Origin: a virus
Lineage: Duplodnaviria > Caudoviricetes
IMG/VR virus record: IMGVR_UViG_3300023095_000008
Span: 1-31,480 of that record
Length of the DNA: 31,480 nt
Direction: 5' to 3' (one strand)
Position numbers and translations under genes: made by a program. The stretch's first letter is position 1, and each line of letters starts with the position of its first letter. The notes under the pieces are model-generated. The model ran no database searches. It was not told the DNA's origin and worked only from the letters and a program-made list of their open reading frames with translations. This document shows, in pieces, positions 7,725 to 28,678 of the stretch.

Positions 7725-7814
7725 AACGTAAAAAATCGCTGTCCTCAATGAAGAAGATAGCGATTCGTTAATATTTTTCTCAAATCCTTGTTTCACAACA
7801 ATAATTTATTTTAG
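7725..7814 (-). ncRNA. Structured leader, weaker member of the two-hairpin (kissing-loop) family
   Basis: Hairpin 7788-7801, AAAAATATT linker, hairpin 7734-7765 and TTTTTACGTT tail. Loops GUGAA/UUCAU give only 5 bp including one G-U. Confidence 0.45.
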
Positions 7815-7822
7815 CAAATATA
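7815..7822 (-). promoter_or_regulatory. Bacteroidota sigma-A -7 element upstream of portal
   Basis: TATATTTG matches TAnnTTTG in an intergenic position. Confidence 0.7.
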
Positions 7823-7841
7823 TGTAAATTTAATTTAGGTT

Positions 7842-8069
7842 TTACATTTTTTTTATACTTATCATTTTGCCTGCTGTAGAAACAACATCTTGGCCTATAG
7901 AAAAAATAATATTTTCCCAATCTTGTTTTAATTGGTTTTCGTCTGCATCCCAAAATATATTTTCATTAGGAGCACATAAAAATATACCATCCCTTACTTT
8001 TTCAATTGAAACTATAAGTTCCAAATTTACTAATACGTTTTTTTCGTTTACACTTTGAATAAATTTCAT
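7842..8069 (-). CDS. Hypothetical protein between terL and portal
   Basis: 75 aa ORF with an ATTATG start context. Confidence 0.65.
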   Translation of the reverse strand: MKFIQSVNEKNVLVNLELIVSIEKVRDGIFLCAPNENIFWDADENQLKQDWENIIFSIGQDVVSTAGKMISIKKM

Positions 8070-8100
8070 AATTATTATTTTTTAATTGTTTGAATTTTGC

Positions 8101-8118
8101 AATAAACTATAGTTTATT
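8101..8118. promoter_or_regulatory. Perfect 18-bp palindrome, possible operator
   Basis: AATAAACTATAGTTTATT is self-complementary and flanked by two ATTGTTTGAAT direct repeats. Confidence 0.4.
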
Positions 8119-8155
8119 ACCGTGTTTATAATTTAATATTGTTTGAATATTGTAA

Positions 8156-9607
8156 TTATATGTTTTTAATCAATCCTTCTTTTCTCCAGAACTCTGCTCC
8201 GTAACGGGCGGGATCCATAAGGTGGTTATCCGTATCTTCAGGTTCTTCCAAAACAATTCCGTAACGGTCAACCTTTCTCGAATAGTTTTCCTGCTCGTAT
8301 TTTAAATTTGCACTTGTTGAAGTATAATAAACATTCAAAGAGTTAAGCAAATCAATTCCATCTATAACAGATCCTGCGCCTTTTGTTGCTGCAATAGCGT
8401 ATTCAAATCCTGCACGCCTTAAAGCCAATATCTTCAACGGCCTGTTGCTATCGCATACTATTACTTTTTCAGGATTAATACCCATCTTTCTGAACTTCCA
8501 CATTATCAATCCTTCCTCTGTATTGTCAATCTGCAACAATTCAGTAGCGGTTAGTTTTTCCCTTATCTTGTTTTCGCTATCGTAGTTCATTTCGTGAAGG
8601 TACAACCCGCCGTCGTAATACTTCATGTGAAGTACTCCCATTGGGTCAACTGCTCCCCAATCCACCGTGTACAAATCCGGTGCTTTAATTGCATTGAAAA
8701 CGTCTAACGGTATTTCAGTCCAATGGAATATTCTGTTAGGGCGTTCGGCTTTCTCTCCAAGTCCGTAAACCTGCCATTTGTATTCAGATGCAGTATTTAT
8801 GGATTCGTTTAATTTGCATCGTGTAAGCTCATTTAAATGCTTTGATGAAAATTCTTTTGGATTTGATTCAATATCATATGTCTTTGCTTCTTCTTCTTTC
8901 AATAGTTTTGAAACAACAATATAGCATAGTTTTACTGGCTGATATGAAAGTATTTTCTTTTTAGCTTCTACAGGACAAAAAGGATTGTCTTTAAATGTAG
9001 AATGAATTGTGATTGTTCTAGGATGTTTTTCTATATCATCTATCCAAGTATCTTTTTTTGGATTAGAATCTATAAAAACAAAATCCGAAGTTCTTTGATC
9101 AACTTGGTCGAAAGTGTCTTTAGATATTTTGTATGGCTCATTAAACCAAGAACAATCTTGAGTAAGTCCGTGTACTGTTTCTTCATCATCCGTACCGTGT
9201 ATTTCGAAAGTTGAATCTGTATCGTAGGTAAAAATACTTTCGGTCTTGTTGAAGTTTTGACCTACTTTATAACGCCCTGTTTTCTTTAGCCTTTTTAACG
9301 TATCATTTAAAACAGTTTTTTTGCAATCAGTCTTAGTGTCTCTCCAAACAGTCATACGTTTATTCTTGTATGCTCTAGCGTACGTATCAAACACATCAAT
9401 CAATGAAACTGTCTTTGAACTTCTTGAAGATCCTTTATTGTTTATGTATCTATAATATTTACCAGAACCTGGATGATTAATTGTAGTACCATCACCACAC
9501 CAATTGCAACTAATGTTTTTTACTAATCCTGACCCATCACAAACATCACACTTTTTAAGTGTTGCGTTCCAATTTTTCTCATAAACTATAGTGGCTTCGA
9601 ATTCCAT
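8156..9607 (-). CDS. terL: Terminase large subunit (PBSX-like)
   Basis: Walker A GSSRSSKT, Walker B WFNE, coupling motif DSNP, FKDNPF, WQVYGLGE, nuclease DWG..DP and DNHLMDPARY. Confidence 0.95.
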   Translation of the reverse strand: MEFEATIVYEKNWNATLKKCDVCDGSGLVKNISCNWCGDGTTINHPGSGKYYRYINNKGSSRSSKTVSLIDVFDTYARAYKNKRMTVWRDTKTDCKKTVLNDTLKRLKKTGRYKVGQNFNKTESIFTYDTDSTFEIHGTDDEETVHGLTQDCSWFNEPYKISKDTFDQVDQRTSDFVFIDSNPKKDTWIDDIEKHPRTITIHSTFKDNPFCPVEAKKKILSYQPVKLCYIVVSKLLKEEEAKTYDIESNPKEFSSKHLNELTRCKLNESINTASEYKWQVYGLGEKAERPNRIFHWTEIPLDVFNAIKAPDLYTVDWGAVDPMGVLHMKYYDGGLYLHEMNYDSENKIREKLTATELLQIDNTEEGLIMWKFRKMGINPEKVIVCDSNRPLKILALRRAGFEYAIAATKGAGSVIDGIDLLNSLNVYYTSTSANLKYEQENYSRKVDRYGIVLEEPEDTDNHLMDPARYGAEFWRKEGLIKNI

Positions 9608-9609
9608 TT

Positions 9610-10095
9610 TTAATCTTCTTCCTCTTCTGGTTTTCTGATCGTTACTTTCAATTCGGTTGGAGTTGTTTTTAGTTCTCCCGATATTTCCTGTTGAATTTTA
9701 TCCCCGTATTTTTTAGGGTTCATTTTTCCTATCATCCATCTTCTTGCATCGTAGCGAAGTCTGCTTCTTTGTATGTGTTCGTGATTTACTTTTTCTATCA
9801 CTATTCCGTCCATGTCAATTTCTTCAACATCGTTTGTTCCGTCATCGACAATTTCAAGTATTTCCTCAAACAAATTATCTGCTCTTTCCTCGCATGCGCG
9901 TGCGTATCGTTTCGTTTTCTCTTTAGCTTCTTCTGTAAGATTACCTTCTTCGTCTTTTTCTTCTAGCCATTTATAAAAAGTAGAAGAACTAGGCATGTCG
10001 TAAATTGCTAGTACTTTTCTCAAAGGACTTCCGTTTTCAATTTCTGAAATGATAAGATTAAATTTTTCGTCCTTTTCTTCTTGACTGTAAGCCAT
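9610..10095 (-). CDS. terS: Terminase small subunit (Sf6 gp1-like)
   Basis: N-terminal HTH (MPSSSTFYKWL), YARA and RLRYDARRWMIGKMNPKKYGDK; adjacent to terL. Confidence 0.9.
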   Translation of the reverse strand: MAYSQEEKDEKFNLIISEIENGSPLRKVLAIYDMPSSSTFYKWLEEKDEEGNLTEEAKEKTKRYARACEERADNLFEEILEIVDDGTNDVEEIDMDGIVIEKVNHEHIQRSRLRYDARRWMIGKMNPKKYGDKIQQEISGELKTTPTELKVTIRKPEEEED

Positions 10096-10101
10096 AATAA
10101 A

Positions 10102-10359
10102 CTATTTACATTGGTATCTATACATATTTCCGTTTCCATCGCTTCTTAAAGCTTTATCCCCTGTGCATTTTGATTCGTCAGCGGGTTGATCGTAAAGAAA
10201 CTGTATGCTGTTGTTATAAACTTCTTTTCTGCAGTTGCAGGTGTCGTTATCTGAAGAACATGATAAAATAAATACTAGGATTACAATAGCTAGAAATAGC
10301 CAAAGTGTGTTTTTTATTTTTCTTTCTCTTTTGTATCTTCTTTGAATAGTATTATTCAT
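10102..10359 (-). CDS. Small Cys-rich lipoprotein
   Basis: Basic N-terminus, hydrophobic helix and lipobox-like ILSC followed by SSDND; likely ATG at 10359. Confidence 0.65.
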   Translation of the reverse strand: MNNTIQRRYKRERKIKNTLWLFLAIVILVFILSCSSDNDTCNCRKEVYNNSIQFLYDQPADESKCTGDKALRSDGNGNMYRYQCK

Positions 10360-10370
10360 TTTATTGTGTT

Positions 10371-10670
10371 TTAGCAAAAATTAGCGATGTTTTTTGTAAT
10401 TATATAGTGAGATTTACATGGCATCTGAAAATTGCCAACACTTGGCGTAAATGATATTTTATCATTAGGTTCTTTTATAAGTTTCCATCCTAAATCCTGT
10501 CCATCAATAATACAATCTATTGGAAGGATAGTTTTTCCACCACAACCACATAAACAATTATGTACAGTTACGCCATATTTCTCTGAAATATAAATAATCT
10601 TTTCTTTTCTTTCTTCAGGAATAAACTCGACATATTCAAAGGTTATTTCTACTTTTTGTAATGTTTTCAT
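10371..10670 (-). CDS. DUF6527-like metal-binding protein
   Basis: HNCLCGCG, W, SFTPSVGN and PCKSHY match the DUF6527 pattern as I recall it; ATG at 10670. Confidence 0.75.
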   Translation of the reverse strand: MKTLQKVEITFEYVEFIPEERKEKIIYISEKYGVTVHNCLCGCGGKTILPIDCIIDGQDLGWKLIKEPNDKISFTPSVGNFQMPCKSHYIITKNIANFC

Positions 10671-10673
10671 AAG

Positions 10674-10681
10674 CAAATATA
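10674..10681 (-). promoter_or_regulatory. -7 promoter element, probably leaderless transcript
   Basis: TATATTTG lies 3 nt before the ATG at 10670 and just after a terminator. Confidence 0.65.
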
Positions 10682-10709
10682 GTTAATTATTTTTAATTTA
10701 ATGTAATAC

Positions 10710-10734
10710 AAAAAAGCGGGAACGACCCCGCTTT
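10710..10734 (-). terminator. Intrinsic terminator ending the early/middle region
   Basis: AAAGCGGG/CCCGCTTT stem followed by a U6 tract. Confidence 0.8.
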
Positions 10735-10850
10735 GATGATCGTAAAATTCATACCGGATTTAAAAATTGTTTTAACTTCTCGGTGGGTGTTTTTTTTATC
10801 TTAATTTCATAATATATCTTTTTAGAGTTAATAATAATTGTTTTCACCCG

Positions 10851-10877
10851 AAAACCCCGCTTATTTCTAAGCAGGGT
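10851..10877 (-). terminator. Terminator-like hairpin
   Basis: ACCCTGCTTA-GAAA-TAAGCGGGGT followed by a short U-run. Confidence 0.55.
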
Positions 10878-10885
10878 GTTTGTTT

Positions 10886-11092
10886 TTAGTTATCGTACCA
10901 ACTTACTGTAAGCTTTTCGTCTTTGAATAAATGGAAATCTTTCATTCCCATGTCAGGAGTTATTACTACCTTCATAAACGCATCTCCTTTTGATGTTTGT
11001 GTAGGAATGGCATAAGTGCCTGGCTCTACTTTTTCAACACTTCCAAACTTCTTGATTAGGAACTGTTTTGCTTCCTCTAATTCTGCTAACAT
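10886..11092 (-). CDS. Hypothetical protein
   Basis: 68 aa ORF in the operon direction. Confidence 0.65.
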   Translation of the reverse strand: MLAELEEAKQFLIKKFGSVEKVEPGTYAIPTQTSKGDAFMKVVITPDMGMKDFHLFKDEKLTVSWYDN

Positions 11093-11113
11093 ATTTTTAC
11101 TTATTTTAAGTTA

Positions 11114-11257
11114 CTATTCGTTTTTAAGTGTTATTCCGTAATCTCTTTTTAATATTTTAATCACATTCTTTTTATTTAATGAAGAAATATAAATGCAATT
11201 TTCTTTTTTTGTAATCTTTTTTTCAGCAGATATATTCCCATTCCATAATCTATCCAT
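11114..11257 (-). CDS. Small hypothetical protein (47 aa)
   Basis: MDRLWNGNISAEKK... fills the gap and overlaps the upstream stop codon. Confidence 0.45.
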   Translation of the reverse strand: MDRLWNGNISAEKKITKKENCIYISSLNKKNVIKILKRDYGITLKNE

Positions 11258-11678
11258 TTATAGTTTTAACTGCGTTTTCTGTGAGGGTTAAGCCTTGTTT
11301 TACGAGGTCTTCTATTTTTGTTAAAACAAAAGTGTTTTTTCCGTCATAATATTTAGGATTAGGCTTGTCAAAATATATATAATCGTAATTTTTATTGTAA
11401 ATAGATTTATTTATTTCTTCAAATGTCCAACCTTCAAATAAAACATTTTTTTCTGCATCTAAAAACTGCTGATTATACCAATCGTCATGAAGTGGATCCT
11501 CTAACGGAACTTCATTTTCATCACAAACAATAAACATCGATAGCTTTAAAGGCTGTGATAGGAATTTAGCGTAGTTTTCAATTCGAGTCCCAAAAACGGA
11601 ATCTCTTGACTCAAAACTTCTGTCGCGACAAAGTTCCAATACGTAATCCAAAAGCGGAATTAGTTTTTGTGTCTTCAT
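11250..11678 (-). CDS. Hypothetical phage protein
   Basis: 142 aa, tightly coupled to neighbouring genes. Confidence 0.7.
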   Translation of the reverse strand: MKTQKLIPLLDYVLELCRDRSFESRDSVFGTRIENYAKFLSQPLKLSMFIVCDENEVPLEDPLHDDWYNQQFLDAEKNVLFEGWTFEEINKSIYNKNYDYIYFDKPNPKYYDGKNTFVLTKIEDLVKQGLTLTENAVKTING

Positions 11679-12085
11679 TAGTAGATTGGTTTTGAGGGTT
11701 CTTTTATAAGTTGGTAATGTGTAATTCCTAAACTTTTATAGGTTTCTGAATAGTAGCAACCCGGTGCAAACCACCGTTTGTAATTTGAAATGTAATTCCC
11801 TATTTGAATTTTTCCATTCTGCATAATAAAACATTGCATATTTTCTTTTGGCAAATCCTCATCTGAATTTATAACCGTCCAATTGTTGTTAGTTTCGATT
11901 CCTGAAAGTGATTTTGGTCTGCCTAATGGAAATTTTGAATCCATTTCAATTGGAATTAAGATATTAGTATCTTTTGTAAATGTAAAGTCACACCACCCAT
12001 TTTCATAAACATAATCTTTTACTATATCCCAATATTCCCCATAAGCCAACTCAATAGCTTTTTGTTTGTTTTCTTGTATTTTCAT
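11678..12085 (-). CDS. Hypothetical protein with DUF551-like C-terminus
   Basis: W..INSDEDLP ... ITHYQ..P.KP pattern; likely ATG at 12085. Confidence 0.6.
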   Translation of the reverse strand: MKIQENKQKAIELAYGEYWDIVKDYVYENGWCDFTFTKDTNILIPIEMDSKFPLGRPKSLSGIETNNNWTVINSDEDLPKENMQCFIMQNGKIQIGNYISNYKRWFAPGCYYSETYKSLGITHYQLIKEPSKPIY

Positions 12086-12087
12086 TT

Positions 12088-12333
12088 TTAAATTTTTTTG
12101 ATTGTCATAATGCAATATCCTTTTTCAATTCCGAAATTACCGCCATTCAAAATATGGGTTACTTCTACTATAATTTTATCGCCGGAATACTCTTCTAAAT
12201 TTGGAAAATATTCTTTTAAAACCAAAGTATCGCCAATCTGATAATTTCTATCATTTAATCGTATTTCCCAAGGCTTTAAGCCACGAACAACATTCTGATA
12301 ATGTTCTGTCCAAGTTTTTAATTCGTGTACCAT
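12088..12333 (-). CDS. DUF3850 / ASCH-PUA-like protein
   Basis: HELKT...KPWEIRLNDRNYQIGDTLVLKEY...VTHIL...GYCIM. Confidence 0.85.
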   Translation of the reverse strand: MVHELKTWTEHYQNVVRGLKPWEIRLNDRNYQIGDTLVLKEYFPNLEEYSGDKIIVEVTHILNGGNFGIEKGYCIMTIKKI

Positions 12334-12357
12334 TTGTTTAGTTTAAGTGGTTAAATT

Positions 12358-13055: not shown

Positions 13056-13072
13056 AATTAATTATTTGTTAG

Positions 13073-13360: not shown

Positions 13361-13362
13361 AA

Positions 13363-13775: not shown

Positions 13776-13777
13776 AA

Positions 13778-14035: not shown

Positions 14036-14077
14036 TTTATATTTAATTTGCCCCGAAATTAATCGGGGCGTTAATAA

Positions 14078-14263: not shown

Positions 14264-14321
14264 AATTTTTGGTTTGAAATTCTCGCCTACTCTATTCAGT
14301 TTTCGGCTTCCCTGTTTATAT

Positions 14322-14477: not shown

Positions 14478-14507
14478 AATATTAATTTTAATGTTGTTGT
14501 TATCTGA

Positions 14508-14540: not shown

Positions 14541-14591
14541 TAGTTTAATATTATATTTTTGATGTATTTTAAAACTTTAACATTTACAAAT

Positions 14592-15758: not shown

Positions 15759-16469
15759 TTACACAGAATAAGACGCACTAATTTTTTGGATAAAATCTTC
15801 ATGCTTAAAATCCCAAGCTTTAGTTTCTGTGCCTTTAATCAAAAATACAACATCACCGTCATTGAAGATTTCAACCGATGAATAGTAACCTTTTATATTT
15901 TCAAACTTAATCATTATACCTCCGTCTTGAGTTGAATTCAGTTTTTCAAACTTTACATGTCCGCTATTTAAAAAATCAATAAAATTTTTAGCATAGTGCA
16001 TAACCAAATAATTATCTAAAGCCTTTCTTATATTTGGATATTTTTCTGAATAGTACTCTATTTTTTTTCCATTCTTTAACCCTATCCATACTGTTCTAAA
16101 ATCTATTTCCAGATTGTTTTCGTTTGAAATTTTCCTGAATGGTATTTTAATTCCTTTGTAAACAACCCAAAGCGTATTTCTTAAATTATATTTTTGTTCT
16201 GACAGAGGAATGTAGCAACAGTTTTCTGGACAATAGTCCTTGTTTACGTTTTTTCTTTCTATCGTCAAGCCTTTTTCCCATCCATTAGAAATGCTCCAGT
16301 CATAAAAAGATTTAAAACTTTTGTTCCATTCGTCACATACTTTTATTCCTAATGCTCCATAAGATTTATATCGATCTACATTTGGATTGTTACATCTTTT
16401 TTTCATGTCTGACCACTTTCTGTAAAGAGGATGCTTTATTAGCCCATGTTTTGTATTATTTCCTGCCAT
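15759..16469 (-). CDS. HNH-like homing endonuclease-type protein with extra C-terminal domain
   Basis: KHG...PLYRKWSDMKKRC, YGALGIKVCDEW and LTIERKNVNKDYCPENC; true ATG probably 16469. Confidence 0.75.
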   Translation of the reverse strand: MAGNNTKHGLIKHPLYRKWSDMKKRCNNPNVDRYKSYGALGIKVCDEWNKSFKSFYDWSISNGWEKGLTIERKNVNKDYCPENCCYIPLSEQKYNLRNTLWVVYKGIKIPFRKISNENNLEIDFRTVWIGLKNGKKIEYYSEKYPNIRKALDNYLVMHYAKNFIDFLNSGHVKFEKLNSTQDGGIMIKFENIKGYYSSVEIFNDGDVVFLIKGTETKAWDFKHEDFIQKISASYSV

Positions 16470-16470
16470 A

Positions 16471-16558
16471 ACGTAAAAACCCGCAATCAAAAAGGTCGTC
16501 GTCTTTTATCCTGCGGGAATTTTAAAATATTTTTATTGTAGCGACGACTCTACTAACG
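16471..16558 (-). ncRNA. Two-hairpin kissing-loop leader RNA
   Basis: GTAG-AGTCGTCG-CTAC hairpin; CCCGCA..AAAAG-ACGACGAC-CTTTT..TGCGGG hairpin plus U5. Loops pair over 7 bp. Confidence 0.7.
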
Positions 16559-16566
16559 CAAATATA
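16559..16566 (-). promoter_or_regulatory. -7 promoter element
   Basis: TATATTTG abutting the ninG stop codon. Confidence 0.7.
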
Positions 16567-18117: not shown

Positions 18118-18964
18118 AAAATATATTTTCTTGGTTAGCCAATATCTTTGAAACGAAAAATTCTTTTAGCACTAATTTTTTAGCTCGCAAAATAATTGAA
18201 TTATCCGTTTTTTCTTCGATAGCCTTAAGATTTTCATTGAGGTTAAATAAATTTCCCTTATCCAATCCTAATTTGGCTTTATAAATTTCATTTTTCTTTT
18301 CAGCTATTAGTTCTTTTTGCGCTTCATAAATTTTTCTGTTGTAGTAAGCGTTAAGCTTTGGCGTGTTTTCGTTTGGAACTTTAATCAAAGCGTTTTCAAC
18401 TAAAATTTCATAAATGTAAGTCAATCCATCGGGCAATGATTGTGATTCTTTAAATTCATTGTAAACACGGTTTACTGCTTTTTTATTAATATCTTCTTTT
18501 GCTGAATTAGTAATTACTTCAAGTTTAGGTTTTTCAATTGATTCAGGAATATAATTTATTAACTGATTATTACGATATTCGATATAAGAATAAAGAACTT
18601 CCCCAACAACAACACAATCAATCATTCTGAAAACTTTTACTTCAAATTGCTTTGCAACAAACATTCTAAAAGCCTCTTTTATTTCTTCTAAAGTAAGGAA
18701 GTGAAATTTATCGATAATAAAATTATAAATAAAAGCTAGATTTTTACCGTGTTCCTCTTCTGTTTCTCCAACACTTTTAACGCCGGTTATATCTAAAATA
18801 AAATTAATAGTTTCATCAACTTCACTCAAGTTCTGTATATTCCGTATCTTCAAATAATTCTCCTTCAGTATTGCCAGTTTCGGCTTGTTGGTGTTTTTTG
18901 GCAAGATTTGAGAAGGTATCTCTGAATTTTTGCTTTGTTGCTGCTGTATTTTGTTGATTTCCAT
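18107..18964 (-). CDS. Replication-associated protein (possible helicase loader)
   Basis: Follows the initiator gene; function inferred from position. Confidence 0.5.
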   Translation of the reverse strand: MEINKIQQQQSKNSEIPSQILPKNTNKPKLAILKENYLKIRNIQNLSEVDETINFILDITGVKSVGETEEEHGKNLAFIYNFIIDKFHFLTLEEIKEAFRMFVAKQFEVKVFRMIDCVVVGEVLYSYIEYRNNQLINYIPESIEKPKLEVITNSAKEDINKKAVNRVYNEFKESQSLPDGLTYIYEILVENALIKVPNENTPKLNAYYNRKIYEAQKELIAEKKNEIYKAKLGLDKGNLFNLNENLKAIEEKTDNSIILRAKKLVLKEFFVSKILANQENIFYET

Positions 18965-19739
18965 TTTGTAAATTTTTATTTTCTTTTATCCATTCCGCTT
19001 CAAATCCTTTCCAATCTTTTTCAATGCAGATTCTTAAAATTTGATTAATGTCTTTTCCTGATAAATAAACCTGTGAAATAAATTTGTCTAATGCAGTTTT
19101 GGTGTCGGTGGCGTTCTTTTTTTTTCTGACTTTGTTCCAGTCGTTTAACAAATCCTTTTCTGCACCTAATTTTTCTAATTCTTTGTAAAACTTAAAAATA
19201 CTTTTTGTTTCTTTTTCTAAAAGAAATTCTTTTCTTTTCTTTTCTTCATCTTTTCTAATCTCATCTTCATCTTGTATTGTCTTTATATTATCTGCGATGT
19301 TTTGCGATGGTGGTGCGATTGGTATGCTATCGGTGTGCGATGCTGGTGCGATGGTTTTTGATAATTCTATTGCTTCTTCCAAAGATATTTCTTTTGCTTT
19401 AAAACGTTGATAAATAGGGTGATGCCACCTTTTTAAATTGCCAACAATGCCACTTGTGCTTTTATCTTTATAAACTTCTTTTATTTCTAAATTTTGCTCA
19501 TCAAGGAATGAAATGTAAACATTTTTACTATCCTTTGTCAATATTTTTTTTGAAATAAGAATTTCAAAGTGTTCTTGATCAATTTCAATAATTGAATCTT
19601 CAATTGATAATTCACAATCTTTATTCCAATACATACAGCATAGCCGTAAAAATCTTGCTTGTGTTATTTCAGGGCATCTTTGTATTTTTCCCATCATCCA
19701 ATCACTAGGAGTAAATTTAAACCATTGCAGCTTATCCAT
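18822..19739 (-). CDS. Replication initiator (lambda O-like architecture, DUF1376-like N-terminus)
   Basis: WFKFTPSDWM N-terminus, central low-complexity linker carrying iterons, C-terminal WKGFEAEW. Confidence 0.75.
   Translation of the reverse strand: MDKLQWFKFTPSDWMMGKIQRCPEITQARFLRLCCMYWNKDCELSIEDSIIEIDQEHFEILISKKILTKDSKNVYISFLDEQNLEIKEVYKDKSTSGIVGNLKRWHHPIYQRFKAKEISLEEAIELSKTIAPASHTDSIPIAPPSQNIADNIKTIQDEDEIRKDEEKKRKEFLLEKETKSIFKFYKELEKLGAEKDLLNDWNKVRKKKNATDTKTALDKFISQVYLSGKDINQILRICIEKDWKGFEAEWIKENKNLQNGNQQNTAATKQKFRDTFSNLAKKHQQAETGNTEGELFEDTEYTELE
19293..19352. repeat. Six iterons, putative replication origin
   Basis: TGCGAT at 19293, 19303, 19314, 19336 and 19347, with TGCTAT at 19325. 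The period is 10-11 bp and the array lies next to an AT-rich polypurine tract. Confidence 0.75.
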
Positions 19740-19977
19740 TTTCCACCTCCGAACTTGTTATTTTATTTATTTCAGTACGAAGTGTTTTAGCGAACTTGAT
19801 TGCTGTACTCTTGTCTAGATAAATAGCACTTGATCCCGTATATATATCACATATTTCTATATAAATAATTCCTTCTGGAATATTTTTTCTTATAAAATTG
19901 TTTTCAGGATTCTCTCTTGTTACAGATATTGTAGATTCGTCTGTACAATCTAAAAATTTTAATTCAAATTTTGCCAT
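19732..19977 (-). CDS. Hypothetical protein
   Basis: Probable ATG at 19977 (MAKFELKF); the longer ORF call runs through the structured leader. Confidence 0.7.
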   Translation of the reverse strand: MAKFELKFLDCTDESTISVTRENPENNFIRKNIPEGIIYIEICDIYTGSSAIYLDKSTAIKFAKTLRTEINKITSSEVENG

Positions 19978-20020
19978 AATAAATAAAGGTTTTAAGTTCC
20001 AATAAACTATTAAGTTGATA

Positions 20021-20119
20021 AAAAAACAAAACTCCAATAAATCCCCGCTCATCACTTCGGTTCATTATTGGAGTTGTTTAAGACTGAAGTTGGTATAATG
20101 TGATGAGCCAACTACACAA
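20021..20119 (-). ncRNA. Two-hairpin kissing-loop leader RNA
   Basis: AGTTGG/CCAACT hairpin; AACTCCAATAA/TTATTGGAGTT hairpin plus U-tract. GCTCATCAC/GTGATGAGC are complementary. Confidence 0.7.
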
Positions 20120-20127
20120 CAAAAATA
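20120..20127 (-). promoter_or_regulatory. -7 promoter element
   Basis: TATTTTTG matches TAnnTTTG. Confidence 0.65.
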
Positions 20128-20347: not shown

Positions 20348-20607
20348 CACTCAATATGGTTAATTGCGTTCTGTACTTCTGACGAGCTTAAGTTTGCATT
20401 TACAGAATCTTCGATAAGCTTGTTTTTCTTCGATGTAAGCGATTCATTTAGAACCCTTCTAAGATTGTTCAGCACTTGTACCTTTTCAAGGTCTGTCAAT
20501 TCATATTCTGTCTGTGAATTTAAGACAGCGAAAAGCTCTAAAGTTCTTCGGTTTACTTTCTGTTCAGATGTTGGTACAGGAAAGAAATAGTTTAGTAGGT
20601 TTTTCAT
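20347..20607 (-). CDS. Hypothetical protein
   Basis: 86 aa; ATGA-coupled to the YopX gene. Confidence 0.65.
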   Translation of the reverse strand: MKNLLNYFFPVPTSEQKVNRRTLELFAVLNSQTEYELTDLEKVQVLNNLRRVLNESLTSKKNKLIEDSVNANLSSSEVQNAINHIE

Positions 20608-20990
20608 AATAATTCAGGGTTTTCGTGAATGTTGCCGATTACTTCCAAAGAATGCTTCCAATAATTTTTAAGATACATCCTTTGGGTTTCGTCATCTGAT
20701 TTTATTTTTTCCAAGTCAAATCCTGCGTCTCCATATACAACTATACAATTGTTTGAAACACCCCCTTCTAGTTCTACTTTGCTAATTAAAATATCTCCTT
20801 CGTAAATATCGACACCGTTTTTGTCTTTCAATCCTGTGAACTGCATTAATTCAAAACTGTAAAATAAAGTGTTTATGGTTTCTTCAAAAGGAACGCATAC
20901 CGTTTCTATTTCAGGAAATCCCCACATTGATGTTACTGTATTCATCGTTTTTGTGATCTGATCAAATACTCTAAATTTTATTTCTCTCAT
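20604..20990 (-). CDS. YopX family protein (copy B)
   Basis: REIKFRVFD, MQFTGLKDKNGVDIYEGD, EVIGNIHENPELL. Confidence 0.9.
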   Translation of the reverse strand: MREIKFRVFDQITKTMNTVTSMWGFPEIETVCVPFEETINTLFYSFELMQFTGLKDKNGVDIYEGDILISKVELEGGVSNNCIVVYGDAGFDLEKIKSDDETQRMYLKNYWKHSLEVIGNIHENPELL

Positions 20991-21038: not shown

Positions 21039-21713
21039 TTAAATCTTCCAGGTTTTAAATGTTCTTACAGAGTTTATTGCGCCTCTTGAAACATTATATA
21101 TATCTGCTAGTTTTGAATTACTCATAACACCAACTGTTTCCCTAATGTGCTTTACCTTATCATTATCTAATTTTGCACAAGGATGCATTACTCCTGATAT
21201 AGGATTCATCAATCCTTCTTTATGCGCATGAATAGCATTTTCTGAATATGTACACCATTCTAAATTTTCGATATTATTATCTGTTTTAATTCCACTCTTA
21301 TGATTTACAACAGGTTTATTAGAATTGTTTTCTAAAAAAGCCATAGCTACTAATCTATGCACGCTCAAAGTCTTTAAAATATTATTTTTATCTCTCAATA
21401 CAACAGATGGATAGCCTACATTAGAAACCCATCCTTTTATCAATCTACTTTTTAAGAATATTTTTCGTTTTTTTATAGATATTCTTGAGCATTCTTTTGT
21501 TTTTACTCTACCCATGCTACTGACTTCATAAAATTCTTCATAACCAATAACATTTTTCCAAATTTCTCCTAAATTATTAATTGTTTCCGAATTCTTTTTT
21601 CTGGATAAACAATTTTTACACCGAGGAGTTAATCCCATATTTGCTTTCTTATGTATTCTAAATTCTAATAATTCTTTGTATTGTAAACATTTAGAGCATT
21701 TTTTTGTTTTCAT
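21039..21713 (-). CDS. NUMOD4-HNH homing endonuclease
   Basis: EIWKNVIGYEEFYEVSSMGRVK (NUMOD4) and VHRLVAMAF..VNHKSGIKTDNNIENLEW (HNH), plus an N-terminal CxxC pair and a C-terminal HTH. Confidence 0.9.
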   Translation of the reverse strand: MKTKKCSKCLQYKELLEFRIHKKANMGLTPRCKNCLSRKKNSETINNLGEIWKNVIGYEEFYEVSSMGRVKTKECSRISIKKRKIFLKSRLIKGWVSNVGYPSVVLRDKNNILKTLSVHRLVAMAFLENNSNKPVVNHKSGIKTDNNIENLEWCTYSENAIHAHKEGLMNPISGVMHPCAKLDNDKVKHIRETVGVMSNSKLADIYNVSRGAINSVRTFKTWKI

Positions 21714-21719
21714 AATAAA

Positions 21720-21820
21720 TAAAAATGCCGAAAATTATTCAAGCGCATCTCAACTCGCTATCCTAATAATCGGCTATAATGTTTTTAATGTTACTTTAAT
21801 TGAGATGCTGTAACGTTAAC
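21720..21820 (-). ncRNA. Two-hairpin kissing-loop leader RNA
   Basis: GTTAC/GTAAC hairpin; GCCGA..AGCG/CGCT..TCGGC hairpin plus U-tract. GCATCTCAA/TTGAGATGC are complementary. Confidence 0.7.
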
Positions 21821-21828
21821 CAAATATA
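21821..21828 (-). promoter_or_regulatory. -7 promoter element
   Basis: TATATTTG. Confidence 0.7.
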
Positions 21829-21903
21829 ATAATTATTTTCGATAAAAGCTAATATTTCCAAGCTTAACGATTTCAATTGCTTCTTCTTTTGTTTGTGTCT
21901 TTT

Positions 21904-22957: not shown

Positions 22958-22959
22958 AA

Positions 22960-23592: not shown

Positions 23593-23594
23593 AA

Positions 23595-23864: not shown

Positions 23865-24082
23865 TTTTTATATTTTTTATTATATTCAATAGTTCCTTGT
23901 ATTGCATTTCCTAATGCTGCACCCAAAGTCAGGGTAAAAAAAGAGATAACAATTATTCCTATTCTTTTATCTATATCGTAATATGGTATTCTTAAAAATA
24001 AAAGTATGTCCCAATAAGCAAAACAAAAACCAAGATATACTAATACGAATAATGCAATTATTGTTGTTATTATAATTTTCAT
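23861..24082 (-). CDS. Small two-TM membrane protein
   Basis: Two hydrophobic segments in 73 aa. Confidence 0.65.
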   Translation of the reverse strand: MKIIITTIIALFVLVYLGFCFAYWDILLFLRIPYYDIDKRIGIIVISFFTLTLGAALGNAIQGTIEYNKKYKK

Positions 24083-24083
24083 A

Positions 24084-24575
24084 TTATTTTAATTTATAGA
24101 TTACATTAAAAAAAATGCTTGCTCTGAATTCTGTCTTTCCAGTATCGTACAAGTATTTAATATCTTGTCGAAGCCTGTAATTTGCCTGTAAAGCAACCTG
24201 AACCTTTTTAGTTAGGTCATATCTTGGCTCGATGTTAAATCCGTAGTAAAGCCAGTTTGAATTTCCGTTTCTGATGATTGATCCTGTTTCAACTCCGATT
24301 GCCAAATCAACTTTATACATCGGATAAACTACCCTGTTATAACCAACTCCGTATTGTTGGAAGTCTATTGTAGCGAAGTTTTCATACTGCATATACACTT
24401 CATTTGATTTATACGATGCGCCAACTCTGATTTGACCGTCAAGGCTTGCTTTGTTGTCCGTTGGTTTGCTTCCAATTGTAGCGTTTGCCAAATCAAATCC
24501 TAACGATACGAAAGGATAATTTTCTTGTGAAAATGCAGAGGTTGTAAATACCAAAGCGATTAATAGTTTTTTCAT
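24084..24575 (-). CDS. Small outer-membrane beta-barrel protein
   Basis: Signal peptide MKKLLIALVFTTSAFS-Q; amphipathic strands (YGVGYN, YGFNIEPRY, FFNVIYKL); size fits an 8-stranded barrel. Confidence 0.7.
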   Translation of the reverse strand: MKKLLIALVFTTSAFSQENYPFVSLGFDLANATIGSKPTDNKASLDGQIRVGASYKSNEVYMQYENFATIDFQQYGVGYNRVVYPMYKVDLAIGVETGSIIRNGNSNWLYYGFNIEPRYDLTKKVQVALQANYRLRQDIKYLYDTGKTEFRASIFFNVIYKLK

Positions 24576-24579
24576 AATT

Positions 24580-24810
24580 TTATTTTTTATTTAGTATTAA
24601 TATGTCTGAAAACCCGCAATATTTATAATCTTCGATAAATTTGTAGTTCATAATTCCAAAAAAACCAATACTTCTGCGTAATTTTATTTTTCCCATATCA
24701 GGATAATTTTCTAAAACTTTTACTTTTCTTATTAAACCCATATCAATAAAAATAACATCACCTTTTTTTAAGTTTTTTAGAAATTCAAATACCTCTTTAC
24801 TTAATCTCAT
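24580..24810 (-). CDS. Hypothetical protein
   Basis: 76 aa. Confidence 0.6.
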   Translation of the reverse strand: MRLSKEVFEFLKNLKKGDVIFIDMGLIRKVKVLENYPDMGKIKLRRSIGFFGIMNYKFIEDYKYCGFSDILILNKK

Positions 24811-24812
24811 AA

Positions 24813-25046
24813 TTACTGTTTTAAAAGTTCTTTGAATTGTTCTAGTGTTATTTCTTGATCTTCTTCTACTGTAATGCTTACATTGAAGTCTTTTTCGTTA
24901 TCGAAATACAAAAAATTATAATAATCTTCTTTACACAACCAATAATCTGCACCAATATTAAATCCAGAACCTAAAATTAATTTTTCCACTTCTTTAAGCA
25001 TTTCTTCATCCTTGATGAACAATACCTTGTTTTCAAATTGTTTCAT
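24813..25046 (-). CDS. Hypothetical protein
   Basis: 77 aa ending EITLEQFKELL. Confidence 0.65.
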   Translation of the reverse strand: MKQFENKVLFIKDEEMLKEVEKLILGSGFNIGADYWLCKEDYYNFLYFDNEKDFNVSITVEEDQEITLEQFKELLKQ

Positions 25047-25375
25047 AATAATTCAGGGTTTTCGTGAATGTTTCCGATGATTTCCATTTGGCTTACTAAA
25101 AAATCATTTATATAGACTACAGGCACATTTCTTCCTATAAAACCAAAACATCCGTCTCCGTAAATAAATACCCTGTTCTTTCCTTGATGAAACGCTATAT
25201 CCCCCTCATAAACGTCAACTCCGTTTTTGTCTTTTAAGCCTGTGAACTGCATCCAAATGGCTTTTTCGCAACCAATATATGGGTTTAAAATACCTGAACT
25301 GCCCATGTAGTCGCATAGTTCATGAAAATACATTTTACCTTCTTGAAAAGTCCTAAATTTAATTTCTCTATTCAT
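25043..25375 (-). CDS. YopX family protein (copy C)
   Basis: REIKFR, MQFTGLKDKNGVDVYEGD, EIIGNIHENPELL. Confidence 0.9.
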   Translation of the reverse strand: MNREIKFRTFQEGKMYFHELCDYMGSSGILNPYIGCEKAIWMQFTGLKDKNGVDVYEGDIAFHQGKNRVFIYGDGCFGFIGRNVPVVYINDFLVSQMEIIGNIHENPELL

Positions 25376-25387
25376 AATTAATATTCT

Positions 25388-25534
25388 TTATAAAGGGTTA
25401 GACAATGGCAAATCAAAAACTTCATCAAACTGATTAATTTCGCTTTGCGTTTCTGTTGGTACTTCGTCGTTGATTAATCTTTCAGCCAACATTAAAAGAT
25501 TTCTTTGGTTTAATTTTTCTAAAATATCGCTCAT
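25388..25534 (-). CDS. Small hypothetical protein (48 aa)
   Basis: MSDILEKLNQRNLLMLAERL... fills the gap. Confidence 0.55.
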   Translation of the reverse strand: MSDILEKLNQRNLLMLAERLINDEVPTETQSEINQFDEVFDLPLSNPL

Positions 25535-25535
25535 T

Positions 25536-25772
25536 TTAAGTTATTTTAAGAGTTCCTGATATTTCGCAACCATAATCAAATCCATGAAATTCTACTGATT
25601 TTTCCCCTGTAAGCTTTGCGTATTTGCTTATCATTTCCAACCCGTTAGCACGTCTGTAATCACGGCTCAAAACGTCCTGCCTTACTCCTGCATATATTGC
25701 AAGTTCTTTTCTTTTGCCGAAAGGGTATTTTGCATCTACCCAATTTTGAAATGTTGTTTTTTTATCTGACAT
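25536..25772 (-). CDS. HTH-like DNA-binding protein
   Basis: RKELAIYAGVRQDVLSR; likely ATG at 25772. Confidence 0.55.
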   Translation of the reverse strand: MSDKKTTFQNWVDAKYPFGKRKELAIYAGVRQDVLSRDYRRANGLEMISKYAKLTGEKSVEFHGFDYGCEISGTLKIT

Positions 25773-25774
25773 AA

Positions 25775-25993
25775 TTACATTTTTTCCAAAATATTTATAC
25801 ATGATTCCATTTTTCTAGTAATATTTTTTTTAAAATAGTCTGAATCTAACAAGTTAGCCATAGAATATGAAGCTTCTAAAAAATTAATAATAGTTTCTTT
25901 TAATTCAATTTGGTTTGACCTTATTATTTCCTCTTTAACTGTATCGTTACTTAACTCAATGCCCCAAGATGAAGTTCTTGTTTGTATTTTCAT
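25775..25993 (-). CDS. Hypothetical early protein
   Basis: 72 aa. Confidence 0.6.
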   Translation of the reverse strand: MKIQTRTSSWGIELSNDTVKEEIIRSNQIELKETIINFLEASYSMANLLDSDYFKKNITRKMESCINILEKM

Positions 25994-25995
25994 AA

Positions 25996-26217
25996 TTATT
26001 TAGTATATGCGTTAATATAAAATTCTGAATTGTCACCTTTGTATTTTTTAACCATTGTAGAGGCAAAAGCTATTTGTTTTGAATCTCCTAATATAATCAA
26101 AGAACTGAAAGTTTGTAAATCTTTATCGCCTTCAAGTTCCCAAATATTAATTACATTATCAATTTGTTTATCAGTAAATTCTAATGTTGTATTGTAAAGT
26201 TTTTCTAAAAAATTCAT
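25996..26217 (-). CDS. Hypothetical early protein
   Basis: 73 aa; first gene after the promoter at 26250. Confidence 0.65.
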   Translation of the reverse strand: MNFLEKLYNTTLEFTDKQIDNVINIWELEGDKDLQTFSSLIILGDSKQIAFASTMVKKYKGDNSEFYINAYTK

Positions 26218-26246
26218 AATAAATATATTTTTTTTGTTATTAACTT

Positions 26247-26279
26247 GTACAAATATACAACTATTTATTAATTGTCAAA
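26247..26279 (-). promoter_or_regulatory. Host-type (early) promoter
   Basis: TTTG-N18-TATATTTG, right after the lysis-region terminator. Confidence 0.75.
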
Positions 26280-26314
26280 TTGTAAATATGTTAAAGTTTA
26301 AAATTAAAGCAAAC

Positions 26315-26347
26315 AAAAAACCCTAACACTTGTAAATGCTAGGGTTT
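26315..26347 (-). terminator. Terminator ending the lysis region
   Basis: AAACCCTA/TAGGGTTT stem and a U6 tract. Confidence 0.75.
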
Positions 26348-26375
26348 AAGATTAAGATATTTTTGAATTGCTATC

Positions 26376-26858
26376 TTATTTTGATAAGTTTTTTGCTATT
26401 TCCGATATGGCTATGCTGTTTTTATTTATTGTTTTGTACATTAAAAATAAAGCGATACCGCCTAAAATTGTGATCATTCCGAAACCGTATAAAATCCAGG
26501 TCGTGTTGACTTCTTCTTTTTTAACGGAATCCTTTTCTTTGATGAATTCTTTTAGTTCTCTGTTTTCCTTTTTAAATTCCTCTATAACCGATGCAAAGCA
26601 ATCTATTGACTTTATCTGACCTTGTGTATTGTAAACGGTCTTTAAAGTAGTTCCCTGTCTGTTTGTGGTGTATATTGTAGTGTCTTTATAAGTTATTTTT
26701 GGAACTAGATAAGTAACCGTATCGCCTTTACGGAAAGTCTTTGTTTCAATCTGCTCTTTAAAGTCAGTATCTGTTTTTGACTTTGAAGACTGTTTGTAGA
26801 TGTCGCAGGACTGAAACATTAAAGTTAAAACAAGTATTTTAAATATTGAGCTTTTCAT
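26376..26858 (-). CDS. Putative unimolecular spanin
   Basis: Lipobox-like FQSC after a hydrophobic signal, plus a C-terminal TM helix (WILYGFGMITILGGIALFLMY); downstream of the endolysin; ATG at 26858. Confidence 0.7.
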   Translation of the reverse strand: MKSSIFKILVLTLMFQSCDIYKQSSKSKTDTDFKEQIETKTFRKGDTVTYLVPKITYKDTTIYTTNRQGTTLKTVYNTQGQIKSIDCFASVIEEFKKENRELKEFIKEKDSVKKEEVNTTWILYGFGMITILGGIALFLMYKTINKNSIAISEIAKNLSK

Positions 26859-26983
26859 TTCTTGCAAAATTTAATTTTACGCCTTTCAGAACGATTTGGA
26901 ATAGTGTTTTCTTTTAGGTCTTCGTGTTTTATAGTTAAATATTGAAGTCCTAGTATTGGGTGGTAGTAGAAATTTGTTTGCAT
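26855..26983 (-). CDS. Small hypothetical protein (42 aa)
   Basis: MQTNFYYHPILGLQYLTIKHEDLKENTIPNRSERRKIKFCKK; follows promoter TACATTTG (26995-27002) and is ATGA-coupled to the spanin gene. Confidence 0.6.
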   Translation of the reverse strand: MQTNFYYHPILGLQYLTIKHEDLKENTIPNRSERRKIKFCKK

Positions 26984-27005
26984 ATTTTTTTATTCAAATG
27001 TAAAC

Positions 27006-27081
27006 AAAAAACCTCACTAAATTAATAATGAGGTTTTGTAAAATTCAATGTTGTTTTGTTGATCACTAAATTTTTAAAAGA
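27006..27081 (-). ncRNA. Putative small RNA 2
   Basis: Promoter TATGTTTG (27082-27089), ~40-nt body with no ATG, terminator AAAACCTCA/TGAGGTTTT plus U-tract. Confidence 0.55.
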
Positions 27082-27101
27082 CAAACATACATAAATAATA
27101 T

Positions 27102-27166
27102 AAAAAACCCGATGTTGCTATCGGGTTAATTATTAACTCAAACCATTAAGTTATGAAAAACAAATT
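27102..27166 (-). ncRNA. Putative small RNA 1, antisense to a translation-start-like sequence
   Basis: Promoter TATATTTG (27167-27174), body TTTGTTTTTCATAACTTAATGGTTTGAGTTAATAATT, terminator AACCCGAT/ATCGGGTT plus U-tract. Confidence 0.6.
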
Positions 27167-27184
27167 CAAATATACAAATTATTT

Positions 27185-27250
27185 CTATACAGAAGTGCCT
27201 CCTAATTTATTTCCGTGAACTACATCACCGTACCAAGTGTAATTTTTCAT
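27185..27250 (-). CDS. Possible 21-aa peptide
   Basis: MKNYTWYGDVVHGNKLGGTSV with an A-rich leader. Confidence 0.35.
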   Translation of the reverse strand: MKNYTWYGDVVHGNKLGGTSV

Positions 27251-27314
27251 TTTATTTGTTTTTAAGTTTAACCTTCCAAAGAGTGACCTTTTTTATTTTT
27301 CATGTTTTTATTTA

Positions 27315-27740
27315 TTATTTCAATTCAAAATGGGCTGGATCAAAAAGACTTTTAAAATCCCCCCCCCAAGTAACTCCAATGCCTAAACATTTAGCAACTG
27401 CCTTGATGTGTACAGAGATTAATTTAAGTTTTGGAATTACTTCTTTATCCGATAACTGTACTTTACCATCGTAAAATGGAAATAAGTCTACAGCGTGTCC
27501 GTAGCCGTCTGATTTCGCCTGATGATTTGATTTCTTCTTTACTCCATCCGCATTGGTTACAATTTTGCCTTTAGCCGTTCTTCCTTGTGCATATAGCGAC
27601 TGCTGATATTGCGTAGTTCTTACACCTTGAACAATTGTAAAGTCAACAGGACTTTCTTTGATTGCTTCTGTCATTAGTTTAACCAAATCCGGATGAACGC
27701 CTTTTAAGGTATCTAAACTTCTTTGTGAAAATTTATTCAT
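27315..27740 (-). CDS. Endolysin, M15-family (L-Ala-D-Glu) peptidase
   Basis: GVHPDL, GVRT...Q..LYAQGRT, SNH...GHAVD, WGGDF and DPAHFEL. Confidence 0.92.
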   Translation of the reverse strand: MNKFSQRSLDTLKGVHPDLVKLMTEAIKESPVDFTIVQGVRTTQYQQSLYAQGRTAKGKIVTNADGVKKKSNHQAKSDGYGHAVDLFPFYDGKVQLSDKEVIPKLKLISVHIKAVAKCLGIGVTWGGDFKSLFDPAHFELK

Positions 27741-27742
27741 GA

Positions 27743-28105
27743 TTATTTACGTTTAAAAAAATTAACTATACTGTCCTGTGCCACATTTACCAATGAAGTA
27801 AGAAAGATGTCCACGTTAAATTTATAGATGATGAATCCCGCTATATCTTTGCTCAACATAGCAATTAAAGATAATACTCCAGGTACATATATTTCTTCGA
27901 TGTGCTTATAAACTACCGCACTAAAAGCATAAACTATCCCTACTGCAATTATAATTGAAAGCAGTACATTTATATATGATATTTTTTTATTTTCCCTTTG
28001 CATTTCTACAGCTATTTTTATACCGACGCCAATAATTGCGGGGACAATTATCTTTGTAAAAAAAGCTAAAAGCTCATTCGATAGGTTTTGTAGTCTTTCT
28101 GGCAT
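27743..28105 (-). CDS. Putative holin
   Basis: About 3 TM segments and a basic C-terminus; directly upstream of the endolysin. Confidence 0.7.
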   Translation of the reverse strand: MPERLQNLSNELLAFFTKIIVPAIIGVGIKIAVEMQRENKKISYINVLLSIIIAVGIVYAFSAVVYKHIEEIYVPGVLSLIAMLSKDIAGFIIYKFNVDIFLTSLVNVAQDSIVNFFKRK

Positions 28106-28406
28106 ATCTAAGGTATGTTATAATTATCAAAATTAAGGCAAAAAAAGCCTCATTTAACCCAAATTTAGTATTATCGAAAATTGTTTCATCTAAGAAATTA
28201 TTTAGAGATAAGCATAAAAGTACAAAACTAGCGACATATTTTTTATTATTCAACCAAATAAAAAATGATAACAGTAAAAAAGCCAAAGAATTACCAAAAT
28301 AATAAATCGGTATTCCCGTTTTTTCTTTTATAATATCCCAAAACATGAAAGCTATTACCGAGACGATAATAGCTATCCATAGAATAATGTTATTTCGCTT
28401 ATCCAC
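28074..28406 (-). CDS. Multi-TM membrane protein (holin/antiholin candidate)
   Basis: Four hydrophobic segments; GTG start; in the lysis cassette. Confidence 0.6.
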   Translation of the reverse strand: MDKRNNIILWIAIIVSVIAFMFWDIIKEKTGIPIYYFGNSLAFLLLSFFIWLNNKKYVASFVLLCLSLNNFLDETIFDNTKFGLNEAFFALILIIITYLRYARKTTKPIE

Positions 28407-28530
28407 GGTCTTTTGGTCGTGTTCCGATAAGTTCCAAGCCTACACGCCCTAAAACTTCGTTTGCATCAGCGATAGCCTTATCAATTGCTAATTGGTCAAT
28501 CTCATTTGGATCGGGTGTCGTTCCTGCCAT
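28399..28530 (-). CDS. Small hypothetical protein (43 aa)
   Basis: MAGTTPDPNEIDQLAIDKAIADANEVLGRVGLELIGTRPKDRG; overlaps the next start codon. Confidence 0.6.
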   Translation of the reverse strand: MAGTTPDPNEIDQLAIDKAIADANEVLGRVGLELIGTRPKDRG

Positions 28531-28576
28531 TTTAAATATTTTTTAAGTTAGATGTAAAAGTAATGAAATTTATTTA

Positions 28577-28584
28577 TATGTTTG
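28577..28584 (+). promoter_or_regulatory. -7 promoter element for the plus-strand insert
   Basis: TATGTTTG. Confidence 0.7.
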
Positions 28585-28678
28585 CAATGTAGTTCACGAC
28601 CTACGGAAAAATATAGCTAACTTTTTTAGCAATTAAAGAACCCTGCATCGTGTCGTGACTTTGCAGGGTTTCTTTTTT
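28585..28678 (+). ncRNA. Two-hairpin kissing-loop leader RNA
   Basis: GTAG-TTCACGAC-CTAC hairpin; AACCCTGCA/TGCAGGGTT hairpin with GTCGTGA in the loop, plus U-tract. Confidence 0.7.

Follow-up and report, generated by a model that had tools for sequence, protein, structure and literature searches.

At lambda pR'-tR', a short terminated leader gates a phage operon, and the riboswitches for ZTP and cobalamin are transcriptional regulators built with a pseudoknot or a kissing loop. Here we describe a predicted leader RNA of two hairpins with mutually complementary loops, four copies of which lie in a single phage of the Caudoviricetes (IMG/VR record IMGVR_UViG_3300023095_000008). The stretch analysed as a whole, hereafter called the window, comprises 31.5 kb of this 40.8-kb record (G002), which has terminal repeats.

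Several known systems come close to this leader. Plasmid rep leaders, such as the attenuators of pT181 and pIP501 and the repZ pseudoknot of IncI and IncB plasmids, also place a structured leader before a replication initiator and have a hairpin loop pair with a complementary partner, few loop letters giving the specificity (PMC10724649, PMC8383071). In these plasmids the loop pairs either with an antisense RNA transcribed from an opposing promoter or with a site close to the ribosome-binding site, and in the repZ leader a formed pseudoknot means on and a blocked one off (PMC8383071). The fluoride riboswitch likewise forms a long-range pairing during transcription beside a terminator, and its pseudoknot and terminator rearrange together (PMC11077080). 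Hairpins of T4-family homing endonuclease genes (I-TevI, segB, mobE, and seg43(25)) resemble the phage leader as 5'-end RNA structures that limit endonuclease expression; they are single, mostly mask the ribosome-binding site and are bypassed by an internal late promoter, and mobE has a weak terminator (PMC2988022). The put RNA of HK022 shares with the leader the form of a promoter-proximal two-stem RNA gating phage operons. Its adjacent stems bind the beta' zinc-binding domain via specific bases and suppress downstream pausing and termination (PMC9378689).

Four leaders with complementary loops

The four elements of the window share one layout, in which a TAnnTTTG promoter box is followed by a small hairpin at the 5' end, a linker rich in A, and a long hairpin with a U-tail, behind which lies a gene (Table 1). 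The box has the consensus of the -7 element of sigma-A promoters in Flavobacterium (PMC9723704). In every element, the tip of the long hairpin is complementary to loop 1. The paired segments are GTCGTCG (16548-16542) and CGACGAC (16501-16495) in element 1, both of whose loops are of 1+7 nt; GCTCATCAC (20108-20100) and GTGATGAGC (20055-20047) in element 2; GCATCTCAA (21808-21800) and TTGAGATGC (21753-21745) in element 3; and TCACGAC (28594-28600) and GTCGTGA (28652-28658) in element 4. A preliminary description of this DNA had reported four clear elements and a weaker fifth. For the four, its coordinates and shared layout proved correct, and so did the reverse complementarity of the two loops. 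The sequence also agrees with its AAAAAYAT linker in four of five elements and with an ATG soon after the hairpin, the first ATGs lying 5-46 nt past the hairpin base.

A descriptor that combined the promoter, the 5' hairpin, at least 6 Watson-Crick loop-loop pairs, a second hairpin, and a U-tract matched 4 of 68 promoters in the window versus 1 of 2163 in 40 shuffles. It was drawn up after the elements had been seen, and the unbiased tests are those on homologues. The nested folds of the four elements have z values of only -1.7 to -3.3, so the signal lies in the loop match and its covariation.

The covariation that had been read between elements of one genome extends to homologues, where the kissing helix is 96-98% paired and has undergone repeated compensatory swaps. 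In the 33 type-A sequences, pairing in this helix stands at 98.5% and 6 of its 8 pairs show double changes; all four helices are 94-99% paired. Among 25 type-B sequences it is 96.5% paired, with double changes at 8 of 8 pairs; the outer stem, poorly aligned in this set, is 63% paired. Parsimony on trees of the downstream gene, which are rough because that gene is short, counted 52 (type A) and 30 (type B) swaps in the kissing helix. Per pair, Watson-Crick swaps in types A and B number 6.5 and 3.75 for the kiss, 4.1 and 2.4 for the outer stem, and 3.0 and 6.3 for the stem closing loop 2, which thus covaries as well. G-U cells number 1 and 1 in the kiss versus 47 and 15 in the outer stem, and such pairs are frequent in stems on the element strand, as expected of an RNA. 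Invariant columns in three subtype alignments number 9, 1, and 0. Loop-loop complementarity with compensatory changes is the mark of a kissing pseudoknot, and pairing of the loops in the folded RNA is predicted on this basis.

The kiss is 7-9 bp long in 197 of 204 elements, and the loops lie 47-58 nt apart (5th-95th percentile, a range partly fixed by the search patterns). The commonest classes of spare loop nucleotides are 0/6/2/0, 2/0/0/5, and 1/0/1/0. Median linkers by geometry class are 14, 22, and 28 nt, the class whose helices would be stacked on one another having the longest, with the caveat that the classes are also lineages. In pseudoknots, crossing the deep groove takes 1-2 nt on the 5' side and crossing the shallow groove 5-6 nt on the 3' side. 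The spare-loop sizes match these needs, so the kiss and the closing stem probably coexist and the long hairpin is probably compatible with the kiss. This bears on an earlier proposal that the nascent 5' loop captures the terminator loop as an attenuator. A leader acting in cis is retained, and an either/or antiterminator seems less apt, given the covarying closing stem and loop sizes that fit coexistence. By eye, the alignments showed no extended helix that could form in place of the long hairpin. A negative correlation between arm and linker lengths was an artefact of how boundaries were defined and was not used.

The fifth element, upstream of the portal gene, does have a promoter, a hairpin, and a second hairpin that is stable (z -3.89) and U-tailed. 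Complementarity between its loops extends over no more than 4 nt, the descriptor scan and a type-B covariance model both miss it, and we reject it as a member of the family. Of the genes that the elements had been said to precede, two HNH genes, the replication block, and an inverted insert are borne out by gene matches, and the head operon is lost with the fifth element. A relative whose portal N-terminus is 92% identical (L598) has a different portal leader, with a promoter and a U-tailed hairpin ~150 nt before the ATG; a 7-letter segment near its 5' end is complementary to the 3' arm of the hairpin, as in a classical antiterminator.

Distribution and loop codes

The kissing-leader family is widespread in phages of Flavobacteriia. 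Eighty viral loci, the window's own record included, carry the protein encoded behind element 2; 63 pass a strict scan, 16 fail, and 1 is too short. In 14 of the failures the loop match is visible by eye, several having a variant promoter, and the other 2 hold an inserted gene. Because 67 loci were picked by the downstream protein alone, the loop match is not circular: with windows fixed relative to the ATG, 63 of the 67 reach a complementarity score of at least 17 with their own partner versus 9.6% with swapped partners, the sequences being related and hence not independent. Four likely false matches were removed by eye from the own-versus-swapped loop analysis. A promoter-free scan of 163 loci and the window gave 163 matches, 88 of them with a perfect box, compared with 29 matches and no perfect box in shuffles.

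Elements occur in seven cultured phages, namely morran9-1, Harreka_1, phi18:3 (two), JQ, phi19:1, phi10:1, and mumin9-1 (two), and the hosts of cultured relatives are Flavobacterium, Olleya, Cellulophaga, and Tenacibaculum. A match to element 1 at 80% is found in 34 Flavobacterium phage records, and 7 of 27 relatives' genomes hold 2-4 elements apiece. Scans for the promoter with GTGAGA...TCTCAC, or with these hexamers in reverse order, yielded an estimated 590 and 830 IMG/VR stretches, versus 270 for a direct-repeat control. Of these gene-blind matches, 64 of 120 and 86 of 120, respectively, contain both hairpins together with the U-tract, versus 2 of 120 control matches. In host genomes, the type-A model matched 1 of 151, that one having a known locus (25 candidates scored per genome), and one code pattern matched 6 of 401 versus 15 control matches among the matches listed; the family was not found in the sampled host genomes. 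Across 110 metagenome matches, contig ends show no accumulation at the predicted start site, which is uninformative. A role in lysogenic immunity was rejected on the grounds that elements occur in phages described as lytic.

The preliminary description had assigned each element its own loop code. Within genomes this holds: cross-pairing by at least 6 was seen in 0 of 74 ordered pairs (13 genomes), versus 81 of 1186 between genomes. The difference suggests selection for orthogonality within a genome, although it is not established, in that the pairs are symmetric and not independent, the between-genome pool holds orthologues, and drift is possible. Between phages codes are reused, also ahead of unrelated genes. 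The 204 elements contain 80 different kissing segments, and one hexamer, GTGAGA/TCTCAC in either order, is very common and shared by hundreds of phage contigs. The code of element 1 recurs before a NUMOD4 endonuclease gene in mumin9-1, and that of element 3 before NUMOD4-like genes in two other genomes (G005 and G168).

Such codes raise the prospect of sensing in trans, in which terminator hairpins cut from earlier leaders would pair with nascent loop 1 of the same code and shut the operon, providing control of copy number or co-infection with no antisense promoter. The lack of cross-pairing within genomes, the diversity of segments, and the frequent position ahead of replication initiators, as in plasmid copy-control leaders, are consistent with this scheme, as is a kissing helix that swaps pairs at least as often as outer stems and avoids G-U. 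We nevertheless consider it very unlikely. The type-B closing stem swaps faster than the kiss, the commonest hexamer code is widely shared, and in an intact leader the two loops would sooner pair with each other.

Downstream genes and proposed mode of action

The 5' hairpin begins 3-6 nt past the box in 45 of 81 elements, and a same-strand open reading frame (ORF) lies at most 120 nt downstream in 136 of 139 distinct elements. A further promoter box within the next 60 nt occurs in only 3 of 81. With a same-strand gene that lacks its own promoter behind nearly every copy, expression depends on passage through the hairpin, and of the two options offered earlier, a cis-regulatory leader is preferred to a free RNA of ~90 nt. 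Element 3 and its gene also move together. An ~810-bp block (21043-21850) that contains this element, its promoter, and the NUMOD4-HNH gene is missing from relatives; contigs in three runs jump 21043-21850/21863 (joints were placed at low likeness, the intervening letters not being read), and one relative (L016) has 252 unrelated bases in its place. Promoter, leader, and HNH gene are thus exchanged as one block. Elements 1 and 4 yielded no clean empty site.

These observations make it highly improbable that the element is an independent small RNA, or a put-like RNA that binds a host protein or RNA polymerase, next to which the downstream gene lies by chance. The promoter-to-terminator unit is constant in size, and its two promoter-proximal stems do resemble HK022 put (PMC9378689). 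Neither point explains a promoterless gene behind almost every copy or the joint travel of element 3 and its HNH gene, and so few invariant bases also speak against a protein-binding RNA of this kind.

Members of one family of 81 amino acids (aa) are encoded by 18 of 136 first ORFs. A rough filter on the 81-aa N-terminus left 121 ORFs, of which 110 were scanned after 10 near-duplicates and one doubtful ORF were excluded. Replication-type genes account for 34 (DUF6291, 15; Lin1244_N, 7; HTH_36, 4; DUF7833, 1; Prim-Pol, 2; BT4734-like, 1; helicase, 4), and we take the first four of these domains to be initiator domains. NUMOD4/HNH or GIY-YIG genes account for 13, other genes for 4, and 59 have no family. 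The AUG lies only 3-6 nt past the hairpin in several endonuclease copies, which places it within the ribosome footprint, and 35-50 nt away before other genes.

The short distances invite a post-transcriptional alternative, namely a 5' untranslated region (UTR) in which the kiss would fasten the 5' end to the hairpin, shield the mRNA from decay, and govern how translation starts, the U-run being a weak terminator or a portion of the initiation region. A 5' hairpin that starts at the expected start site would suit such a design. So would the result of a simple terminator scan, whose requirement for an uninterrupted stem and short loop excluded all four long hairpins, with their large loops and internal loops. 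Even so, a UTR of this sort is unlikely, since the U-run trails the stem at any AUG distance (about 2 to 50 nt) and the identical design stands before genes whose AUG is 35-50 nt off. In all four elements a GC-containing stem is followed immediately by the U-tract, and at least 6 U occur in the 9 nt past the last G/C pair in 161 of 204 elements, partly by selection.

We tentatively favor the view, plausible rather than probable, that the leader is a ligand-free transcription attenuator in which loop-loop pairing favors read-through into the next gene. The RNA would start a few bases past TAnnTTTG, and the small hairpin would form first and display loop 1. Loop 2, once out of the polymerase, would pair with loop 1 while the 3' arm of the long hairpin has yet to be transcribed. 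Zipping of the long stem, with its 5' arm held in a closed ring and the linker winding along, would then in some transcripts not be complete until the polymerase has passed the U-tract. Whenever loop 1 is masked or pairs slowly, an RNA of ~90 nt would be released. Replication genes and toxic endonucleases would in this way receive metered expression, with no phage protein required at the start of infection. We prefer the read-through sign because lytic phages have to express their replication genes when no phage protein is yet present, and because a pseudoknot that means on is the sign of the repZ leader; the joint rearrangement of pseudoknot and terminator in the fluoride riboswitch is a further analogy (PMC11077080).

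Several points weigh against read-through attenuation. The long hairpins are non-canonical terminators, as the scan indicates, and the U-tract test formed part of the selection. The closing stem of loop 2 covaries, and linkers seem long enough for the kiss and the full hairpin together, in which case the delay might be slight, or the kiss might actually accelerate folding of the hairpin. Moreover, no switching input was found. Antisense TAnnTTTG boxes, the only boxes considered, are not in excess (15 of 81 within 200 nt versus a 19% background; 13 of 181 within the element or immediately past it). The 81-aa PUR-like family is present in 2 of 24 gene-blind genomes by a narrow profile that misses similar-looking small proteins, and its protein was rejected as an obligatory partner for this reason.

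A kiss that speeds folding would yield an attenuator of opposite sign, which we regard as somewhat unlikely. The kiss would pre-organize the large apical loop, hasten terminator folding, and give a stable knotted RNA of 90 nt; genes would receive leak-through only, unless loop 1 is disturbed by a protein of phage or host or by a ribosome arriving from the upstream gene. The spare-loop classes that allow kiss and closing stem together accord with this arrangement, and stacking would help an apical stem of only 3-5 bp around a loop of 8-13 nt. Low expression would also befit endonucleases, for which T4 offers a precedent (PMC2988022). It would, however, leave essential replication genes off by default in lytic phages such as mumin and morran, which are without lysogeny genes (PMC7077304), and no candidate antiterminator turned up, though no systematic search was made.

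It is conceivable, if quite unlikely, that read-through in cis is joined to competition in trans as a self-addressed switch. Each operon's code of 7-9 letters, held twice in the leader, would pass the polymerase by cis pairing, and leftover hairpins of the same code would compete in trans. If true, lytic phages would have antisense-free control of copy number and co-infection, with several orthogonal channels per genome.

Gene setting and relation to named families

The modules of the window are lambdoid and include capsid, portal, terminase, NinG, NinB, ERF, an O-like initiator, four YopX genes, and two HNH genes. Two loci in the 9 kb of the record beyond the window (L177 and L178) show long tail-type ORFs, and no integrase-like ORF was seen there by eye, no profile search being made.

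Table 1. Leader elements of the window and associated features
Feature	Position	Strand	Basis and remarks
Element 1 promoter box, TAnnTTTG	16559..16566	-	Sequence
Element 1	16475..16553	-	5' hairpin 16553-16538, linker, long hairpin 16522-16475, U-tract
HNH endonuclease gene	15759..16469	-	PHROGs HNH, E 7e-39; ATG at 16469, 5 nt past element 1 hairpin
Element 2 promoter box	20120..20127	-	Sequence
Element 2	20024..20116	-	5' hairpin 20116-20085, long hairpin 20079-20024, U-tract
Small conserved motif, past element 2 and before the 81-aa gene	19988..20011	-	Short stem, 8-nt A-rich loop
81-aa protein gene	19732..19977	-	Directly before replication initiator; predicted PUR/PC4/Whirly-like fold
Replication initiator (O-like / primosomal protein)	18822..19739	-	PHROGs E 8e-20 and 5e-15
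Element 3 promoter box	21821..21828	-	Sequence
Element 3	21727..21819	-	5' hairpin 21819-21785, long hairpin 21774-21727, U-tract
NUMOD4-HNH endonuclease gene	21039..21713	-	Pfam NUMOD4 and HNH_3; behind element 3
Element 4 promoter box	28577..28584	+	Sequence
Element 4	28589..28675	+	5' hairpin 28589-28604, linker with extra small hairpin, long hairpin 28635-28675, U-tract
YopX-family gene, first in inverted insert	28692..29081	+	Pfam YopX; inverted repeat of 20602-20987 (94% alike)
Promoter, hairpin, and U-tailed hairpin before portal gene (fifth element)	7725..7822	-	Sequence; not a kissing element

The structure model of the 81-aa protein has a pLDDT of 83, and its best structural matches are repeats of PUR, a single-strand binder like PC4, at Z 6.2-6.8, under the tool's clear-match level of 8. 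Its ends are conserved and its middle is very variable. An atlas search with it returned unnamed viral clusters only, under 0.9. Many other small first genes behind leaders resemble it, at levels under profile significance.

The small motif between element 2 and its gene has a fixed 9-letter lead-in and a stem that covaries in relatives (AGG/CCT, CCG/CGG, CGG/CCG, CAG/CTG). The stem is weakened in the window, and relatives (L002-L080) carry the motif just before the ATG. A motif of this type remains with the 81-aa gene where another gene sits after the kissing leader (L050, L068), and it is possibly a translational operator.

A near-identical copy of element 4 lies on the minus strand of a relative (L006, near 3493), weakened by one change at the foot of the long stem (-11.3 vs -16.0 kcal/mol). 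The YopX gene behind element 4 is one of two inverted copies, 20602-20987 and 28698-29083, that are 94% alike, the second being the start of the inverted insert in the lysis region. After the endolysin gene (26990-27170, minus strand), three TAnnTTTG boxes alternate with two short-loop terminators, tandem units that could be a source of small RNAs. The only Rfam match in the window is the motif DUF805b, which lies away from the elements at 14284-14316 (minus strand) between two small genes and scores 39.5 bits, above the gathering score.

The leader would work like an attenuator or a rep-leader pseudoknot, yet it falls outside each of the named families. Unlike that of plasmid rep leaders, its partner is the tip of its own U-tailed hairpin, opposing TAnnTTTG boxes are not enriched, and it also serves endonucleases and other genes; element 2 precedes an initiator and elements 1, 3, and 4 do not, just as replication-type genes make up 34 of the 110 first genes. 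Unlike riboswitches, it has no conserved ligand pocket, as the scarcity of invariant columns indicates, and no Rfam match; its downstream genes are unrelated, and the pairing engages the terminator's loop rather than its arm. It differs from the T4-family hairpins in having a TAnnTTTG box before a whole two-hairpin unit and loops that are predicted to pair. Elements 1 and 3 stand directly before homing endonuclease genes, as do 13 of 110 in the gene-blind set. In contrast to HK022 put, the leader has a linker of 14-28 nt between its stems and loops that covary freely, again with no Rfam hit.

Covariance-model comparison likewise assigned the elements to no named family: searched with a threshold of E<=1, Rfam 15 matched them neither in the window nor at 14 further loci. 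The literature searched contains no description of the leader, and the tables of PMC10690425 hold no match; the motif supplements of PMC5737381 and the alignments of PMC10690425 lay outside the search and may hold a related candidate. This is apparently a common, undescribed regulatory RNA of Bacteroidota phages, one code alone being carried by an estimated several hundred IMG/VR contigs. Its presence in cultured lytic phages offers direct experimental access, and it opens the general question of whether co-transcriptional pairing to a terminator loop delays or speeds termination. The natural loop codes, which do not cross-pair, are potential orthogonal regulatory parts for Bacteroidota. If the reading that we favor is true, these phages would meter their replication initiators and selfish nucleases without a ligand, a leader peptide, or an antisense promoter.

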